This document shows, piece by piece, positions 39,335 to 39,793 of a stretch of DNA of 64,000 nucleotides (its first letter is position 1; each line of letters starts with the position of its first letter). A program made the position numbers and the translations under genes. The stretch lies in sequence record NC_054908.1. One strand, 5' to 3'. This stretch comes from Escherichia phage vB_EcoM_DalCa. Under the pieces are notes generated by a model. It was not told where the DNA came from. It made no database searches and saw only the letters and a list, made by a program, of their open reading frames with translations.

Positions 39335-39793
39335 TTATTTTAAATCATCTGCCCAATCGAGTTTAAGAGGCTCTTTGTATTCACGGTCAAGTACAACCGG
39401 AATTTGTACATCACCGCTAAATGATAAGGGCCCAACATTATAAGACAATGTTATATGCGGTGTGTAATCATCAAAATCGTGTGTAGCACCTAGTGCCCGC
39501 GCATACATGTGTCGACAGCGCAGATATTCAGAATCTAGCACAAGTACAAGAGTCGATCCATCTTGTGTTTTCCACACTTCTAAATGTCCAGAAGAAGCTA
39601 CTTCAAAACTTCCACTCGATGGAACATATGGAACATTTACTCTTGAATAACATATAGTCGAATGAATTTTTTCTCTAGGAACTGGATTAGGAACACGTAA
39701 AGAGCGCTGGAGTTCTTCCAGCGCGTCAAGTGTTAATTCTGAAAACTTAGCTGCTACATAAAGACCCGTTGAAAAGTCTTTAAATTCCATCAT
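39335..39793 (-). CDS. 57B: 2H-phosphoesterase family protein, gene 57B-like (Acb1-type cyclic-nucleotide phosphodiesterase candidate)
   Basis: 152 aa, same length as T4 57B; two H-x-T/S-x motifs (HSTICY and HITLSY) typical of 2H phosphoesterases; position adjacent to 57A. Confidence 0.75.

Follow-up and report, generated by a model that had tools for sequence, protein, structure and literature searches.

Does the open reading frame that sits at the position of T4 gene 57B in Escherichia phage vB_EcoM_DalCa (NC_054908.1) encode a phosphodiesterase that degrades the signals of CBASS immunity, or an RNA ligase, as some database records name it? We addressed this question in a window of 64,000 nucleotides, the whole stretch of DNA that was analysed. 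The gene at 39335-39793 is almost certainly acb1 (T4 gene 57B) of a T4-like Tequatrovirus, and its predicted product would be a 2H phosphodiesterase acting on CBASS signals.

Identity of the gene at the 57B position

The acb1 coding sequence starts with ATG and, including its TAA stop, occupies exactly 39335..39793 on the minus strand. It encodes 152 amino acids, in which a regular-expression scan found exactly two H-x-T/S-x motifs, in agreement with the initial annotation. The first, HSTICY (residues 44-49; 39647..39664, minus strand), contributes H44 and T46, half of the catalytic tetrad, and the second, HITLSY (residues 113-118; 39440..39457, minus strand), contributes H113 and T115, the other half. 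All four tetrad residues (T4 numbering) are present, so that both catalytic histidines, whose loss had been named as one finding that would speak against an Acb1, are kept together with their threonines. Also present are all five residues that contact the ligand, namely the nucleobase-stacking Y12, W74, F107 and W147 and the adenine-reading E141. The C-terminal lid, LDWADDLK (residues 145-152, including W147; 39338..39361, minus strand), has the same sequence as in T4.

Alignment to T4 57B/Acb1, suggested at the outset as a check, proved to be perfect: BLASTP gave 152/152 identities between T4 gp57B and the window product (E = 2e-117), i.e. 100% amino acid identity. At the DNA level 451/459 nucleotides are identical to T4 57B, and the eight differences, which fall in seven codons, are all synonymous, which points to purifying selection on a functional gene. 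Two opposite-strand open reading frames inside acb1, at 39493-39657 (54 aa) and 39507-39650 (47 aa), were rejected as mechanical artefacts in view of this selection on the minus frame and of the lack of plus-strand support.

The product scored 202.7 bits (E = 2.7e-60) with the Pfam model PF23474 (Anti-CBASS protein Acb1), whose cut-off is 27, over residues 9-150 and profile positions 1-144 of 144. The best match among PDB sequences was Acb1 of Erwinia phage FBB1 (7T26, apo; 7T27, complex with 3'3'-cGAMP; E = 4.2e-62), with 96 of 141 aligned residues identical (68%) and one single-residue gap. The two proteins share the HxT/HxT tetrad, the stacking aromatics and the C-terminal lid; they differ in the first motif (FBB1, HTT; window product, HST) and in about a third of the residues, mostly outside the motifs. 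A compact 2H phosphoesterase fold is a safe inference from this 68% identity to 7T26, which extends over 141 of the 152 residues. Phage 2H PDE-9 (Doherty et al., 2025, preprint), whose PDB entries 9Q2G/9Q2Y carry the name 'Anti-CBASS protein Acb1', shares the 2H core with its two HxT motifs, but its sequence similarity to the window product is marginal (E = 0.004). The HxT motifs of the product align to those of both FBB1 Acb1 (7T26; the second is HIT) and 9Q2G (the second is HLT). 2H PDE-9 belongs with T4 Acb1 to structural group 3 and degrades 3'3'-cGAMP, whereas its lid is N-terminal (C-terminal in T4 Acb1) and it largely spares 2'3'-c-di-AMP, so that Panoptes is not triggered (Doherty et al., 2025).

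Identity, motif retention and synteny are established directly here. The initial proposal, that the product is a 2H phosphoesterase and a homologue of T4 57B/Acb1 and degrades CBASS signals, is supported by 152/152 identity to the protein on which the published work was done (PMC9117128). Its family assignment held, with no result speaking against it, while the terms 'candidate' and likely homologue understated the relationship, since this is the very sequence of the family's founding member.

Activity and natural targets

The chemistry and the immune-evasion phenotype of the DalCa protein are taken from the literature on the identical T4 Acb1, and are predicted to hold for it by virtue of that identity. 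Activity-guided fractionation identified T4 gene 57B as the gene for Acb1 (Hobbs et al., Nature 2022; PMC9117128), and T4 gp57B (NP_049750.1/AAD42501.1) is the founding anti-CBASS nuclease (PMC9117128). The T4 enzyme cleaves cyclic di- and trinucleotides with at least one adenosine (3'3'-cGAMP, cUA, cAAA and cAAG); cGG, cA4 and the 2'-5' bond of 3'2'-cGAMP are not cleaved (PMC9117128). In the structures of FBB1 Acb1 the 2H fold is compact and has a U-shaped pocket and a lid (residues 145-152) that closes over 3'3'-cGAMP; stacking on the bases is provided by Y12, W74, F107 and W147, and the contact to adenine N6 by E141 (PMC9117128). Metal-independent acid-base cleavage 3' of adenosine by H44, T46, H113 and T115 goes by way of a cyclic phosphate intermediate to GpAp, and H44A/H113A mutants are inactive (PMC9117128). 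Acb1 keeps the effectors Cap5, Cap4 and CapV from being activated, and T4 lacking acb1 replicates normally in the absence of CBASS but plates more than 300-fold worse on CBASS hosts (PMC9117128).

Working in the same manner, DalCa Acb1 would be a small, metal-independent 2H phosphodiesterase that captures adenosine-containing cyclic di- and trinucleotides in its U-shaped pocket with the C-terminal lid shut. Its four aromatic residues would stack on the ligand bases and E141 would read adenine N6, while the tetrad would cut the 3'-5' bond 3' of adenosine via a 2',3'-cyclic phosphate, yielding a linear product such as GpAp. With the second messenger removed, the CBASS effectors (nucleases and phospholipases) would stay inactive and the phage would escape abortive infection.

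The same activity could also be directed mainly at non-CBASS cyclic-nucleotide pathways, for example at cAAA in type III CRISPR or at the 2',3'-c-di-AMP decoy of Panoptes, the latter possibly exposing the phage. Hobbs et al. noted that cleavage of cAAA may permit evasion of type III CRISPR (PMC9117128). T4 Acb1 degrades 2'3'-c-di-AMP about as fast as 3'3'-cGAMP and triggers Panoptes when over-expressed; deletion of its lid (145-152) abolished the triggering, which the authors read as a loss of catalysis (bioRxiv 10.1101/2025.08.21.671373). In the literature, acb1 on a plasmid also yields fewer colonies with Panoptes. However, deletion of acb1 from T4 is reported to leave Panoptes defence unchanged, whereas the CBASS phenotype is strong (>300-fold; PMC9117128), and the CRISPR and Panoptes roles, already published, would come in addition to CBASS evasion and would not substitute for it. 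We consider it unlikely that they represent the main natural targets, and retain degradation of CBASS signals as the principal role.

The full conservation of the Acb1 amino acid sequence across many Tequatroviruses might conceivably reflect constraint beyond CBASS evasion, for example if degradation of CBASS and type III CRISPR signals were balanced against detection by Panoptes-type decoys, with Acb1 and a diverged Acb2 allele forming an adaptive combination. We give this speculation very little weight; the evidence is neutral on it, and the ideas behind it have been published before.

Distribution and the RNA ligase label

By megablast, the acb1 gene was found in 553 phage records, with at least 95% nucleotide identity in 501 of them, and at least 25 independent phage genomes have a 100% identical copy, which argues against a frameshift masked by sequencing error. 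Over 20 kb, the window itself shares 98-99% identity with Tequatroviruses such as U115, Paracelsus and YUEEL01. Among the 25 listed identical GenBank copies, 'hypothetical protein' is the label of 23 and 'RNA ligase' that of two (Pinarejo and Elenatom).

These labels, together with the name of PHROG 755, might suggest that the product is an RNA ligase, or a LigT-type 2'-5' RNA ligase or RNA-repair enzyme. PHROG 755, named 'RNA ligase', matches the acb1 product at E = 5.3e-68, the identical gene in the Pinarejo record (PP925831) is annotated in the same way, the product weakly resembles Pfam 2_5_RNA_ligase2, and LigT has the 2H fold as well. Two HxT/S motifs, metal-free catalysis and a 2',3'-cyclic phosphate as intermediate or product are found, as in Acb1, in LigT/2'-5' RNA ligase-type 2H enzymes (PF13563) and in the 2H phosphodiesterases of eukaryotic viruses (coronavirus NS2a/NS4b and rotavirus VP3). 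Unlike Acb1, which acts on 3'-5' cyclic oligonucleotides, these enzymes act on RNA ends or 2'-5' oligoadenylate. The match of the product to PF13563 falls below the Pfam cut-off (13 vs 27 bits, E = 0.11) and covers residues 81-123 only, as against 202.7 bits for the Acb1 model, and the 'RNA ligase' label is for this reason unsupported as a family assignment. Furthermore, in experiments the identical protein hydrolysed cyclic oligonucleotides and conferred CBASS evasion (PMC9117128). With the LigT profile below its gathering score and the Acb1 activity of the identical protein published, an RNA ligase identity is effectively refuted and has hardly any chance of being right; the name carried by PHROG 755 and by the Pinarejo gene is a misnomer inherited from the superfamily and not a tested function. 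That the open reading frame is an inactive relic, or has a specificity unlike that of T4 Acb1, is practically inconceivable and is refuted by zero amino acid differences from T4 Acb1, the nucleotide changes being synonymous only.

Gene neighbourhood and expression

As the initial annotation had placed it, acb1 lies at the T4 57B position, directly downstream of the gene 57A homologue, which it overlaps by ATGA, and downstream of gene 1 (dNMP kinase). The 57A homologue (tail-fibre chaperone, 76 aa; 39790..40020, minus strand) matches PHROG 1002 'tail fiber chaperone' (E = 2.4e-27), and its TGA stop overlaps the acb1 ATG in the junction sequence GAAGAATGATGG. In T4 (AF158101) 57B (73952-74410) lies between ipI and 57A (74407-74649), with the same stop/start overlap. 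Judging from this ATGA overlap, 57A and acb1 are probably co-transcribed and translationally coupled. The minus-strand order in the window is gene 2, 3, 1, 57A, 57B, two ip cassettes, homologues of trna.4/.3/.2 and 11 tRNAs, which is the T4 order; over T4 73844-78000 this region runs colinear with T4 at 97.9%, and the window is colinear with T4 from ~33.7 kb to past 78 kb (T4 coordinates). The locus resembles that of T4 in gene length, in its flanking genes and in the overlap, and differs in the eight synonymous nucleotides and downstream of acb1, where T4 has ipI and DalCa has two other ip cassettes.

An exact match to the T4 late-promoter consensus, TATAAATA, lies inside gene 1 (40376..40383, minus strand), 356 nt upstream of the 57A start, and in T4 this octamer likewise lies 356 nt above the start of 57A (L001 7006-7013). 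It is a candidate late promoter for the 57A-acb1 pair, as a bare consensus match whose window-wide count is not above chance. Co-expression of acb1 with 57A from this site would fit the finding that cGAMP-cleaving activity sets in ~15 min into T4 infection (PMC9117128). A scan of 38600-41000 gave 12 promoter-like sites against 8.5 +/- 2.3 in shuffled sequence and one terminator against 1.0; neither the stretch from 57A to acb1 nor the sequence just after acb1 has a terminator. Sigma-70-like matches within acb1 (39466-39437 and 39448-39421) were no better than chance, and Rfam, applied to 34000-41500 with its gathering thresholds, reported only 11 tRNAs and no RNA element in or beside acb1.

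The site beside acb1 that holds ipI in T4, the gene for an anti-GmrSD internal protein, is occupied in DalCa by two unrelated small genes. These are an 85-aa open reading frame (39004-39261, minus strand) and an 81-aa one (38694-38939, minus strand), which match PHROG 3499 'internal head protein' and PHROG 8111 'internal virion protein', respectively. The first protein has in common with IpI only its N-terminal ~26 residues (MKTFKEF..., a capsid-targeting-type leader), and the second contains MKTYQEFIAE. Being in an anti-defence neighbourhood, these two genes are more interesting than acb1 itself. A 71-nt direct repeat precedes each ip cassette (38949-39019 and 39280-39350, 86% identical, with a weaker copy at 38651-38721) and carries a sigma-70-like promoter (TTTACA-17-TACTAT with TG). 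The final codons of acb1 (...DLK-stop) already hold the start of its upstream copy, and DLK-stop is also the ending of the 85-aa ip gene. From their arrangement, the repeats look like a recombination scaffold for swapping or duplicating ip cassettes.

Other differences from T4 were seen elsewhere in the window. T4 ipII and ipIII (T4 65359-66454) are absent, and denV abuts e (30674-30681). Between e.8 and the rnaC/rnaD-like region lies a segment of ~1.2 kb that was not found in T4 (34723-35938); two of its open reading frames, at 34732-35295 (MKTYAEFLTEA) and 35421-35894 (from an internal ATG, MKSYTQFLNEA), have likely N-termini resembling those of internal proteins and are possibly relocated or alternative internal proteins. 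A 116-aa open reading frame between the rnaC/rnaD-like segment and tRNA-Arg (36278-36628, minus strand), called 'hypothetical protein' in phage Pinarejo, had no Pfam match at E <= 0.01. The 11 tRNA genes (36647-37664, minus strand) are Arg, His, Asn, Tyr, Met[CAT], Thr, Ser, Pro, Gly, Leu and Gln, compared with eight annotated in T4; the putative 'Met (CAT)' gene adjoins tRNA-Thr, where T4 annotates tRNA-Ile, and segB, the homing-endonuclease gene that interrupts the T4 tRNA cluster, is absent. DalCa also lacks mobB and mobC, two homing-endonuclease genes of T4, as well as the I-TevII intron of nrdD, and in place of the mobD region it has ~1 kb that does not match T4; the mobB, mobC, mobD and intron differences map to window positions ~4143-4168, 8945-8965, 10241-10244 and 21393-22362. 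They are typical mobile-element polymorphism among T-even phages.

A homologue of acb2 (T4 vs.4) is encoded at 28394-28660 (minus strand). Its 88-aa product matches PF24729 (Acb2_Tad1_hairpin, E = 3.2e-18) and is identical at 79 of 88 positions (90%) to T4 Vs.4, an anti-CBASS cyclic-nucleotide sponge, with nine substitutions vs none in Acb1. With acb1 and this homologue in one window, the phage has both known T4 anti-CBASS genes. The acb1 gene itself is already known, as the founding member of its family and with the very sequence used in the published purification, mutagenesis and deletion work on T4, and it brings no new biology. The practical value of the finding is correct labelling, as annotation has lagged behind the 2022 characterisation of Acb1. 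Recognition of acb1 leads to the correct anti-defence repertoire of this phage, Acb1 together with the Acb2 homologue that the window also encodes, and this repertoire is relevant to the choice of T4-like phages against CBASS-carrying hosts.
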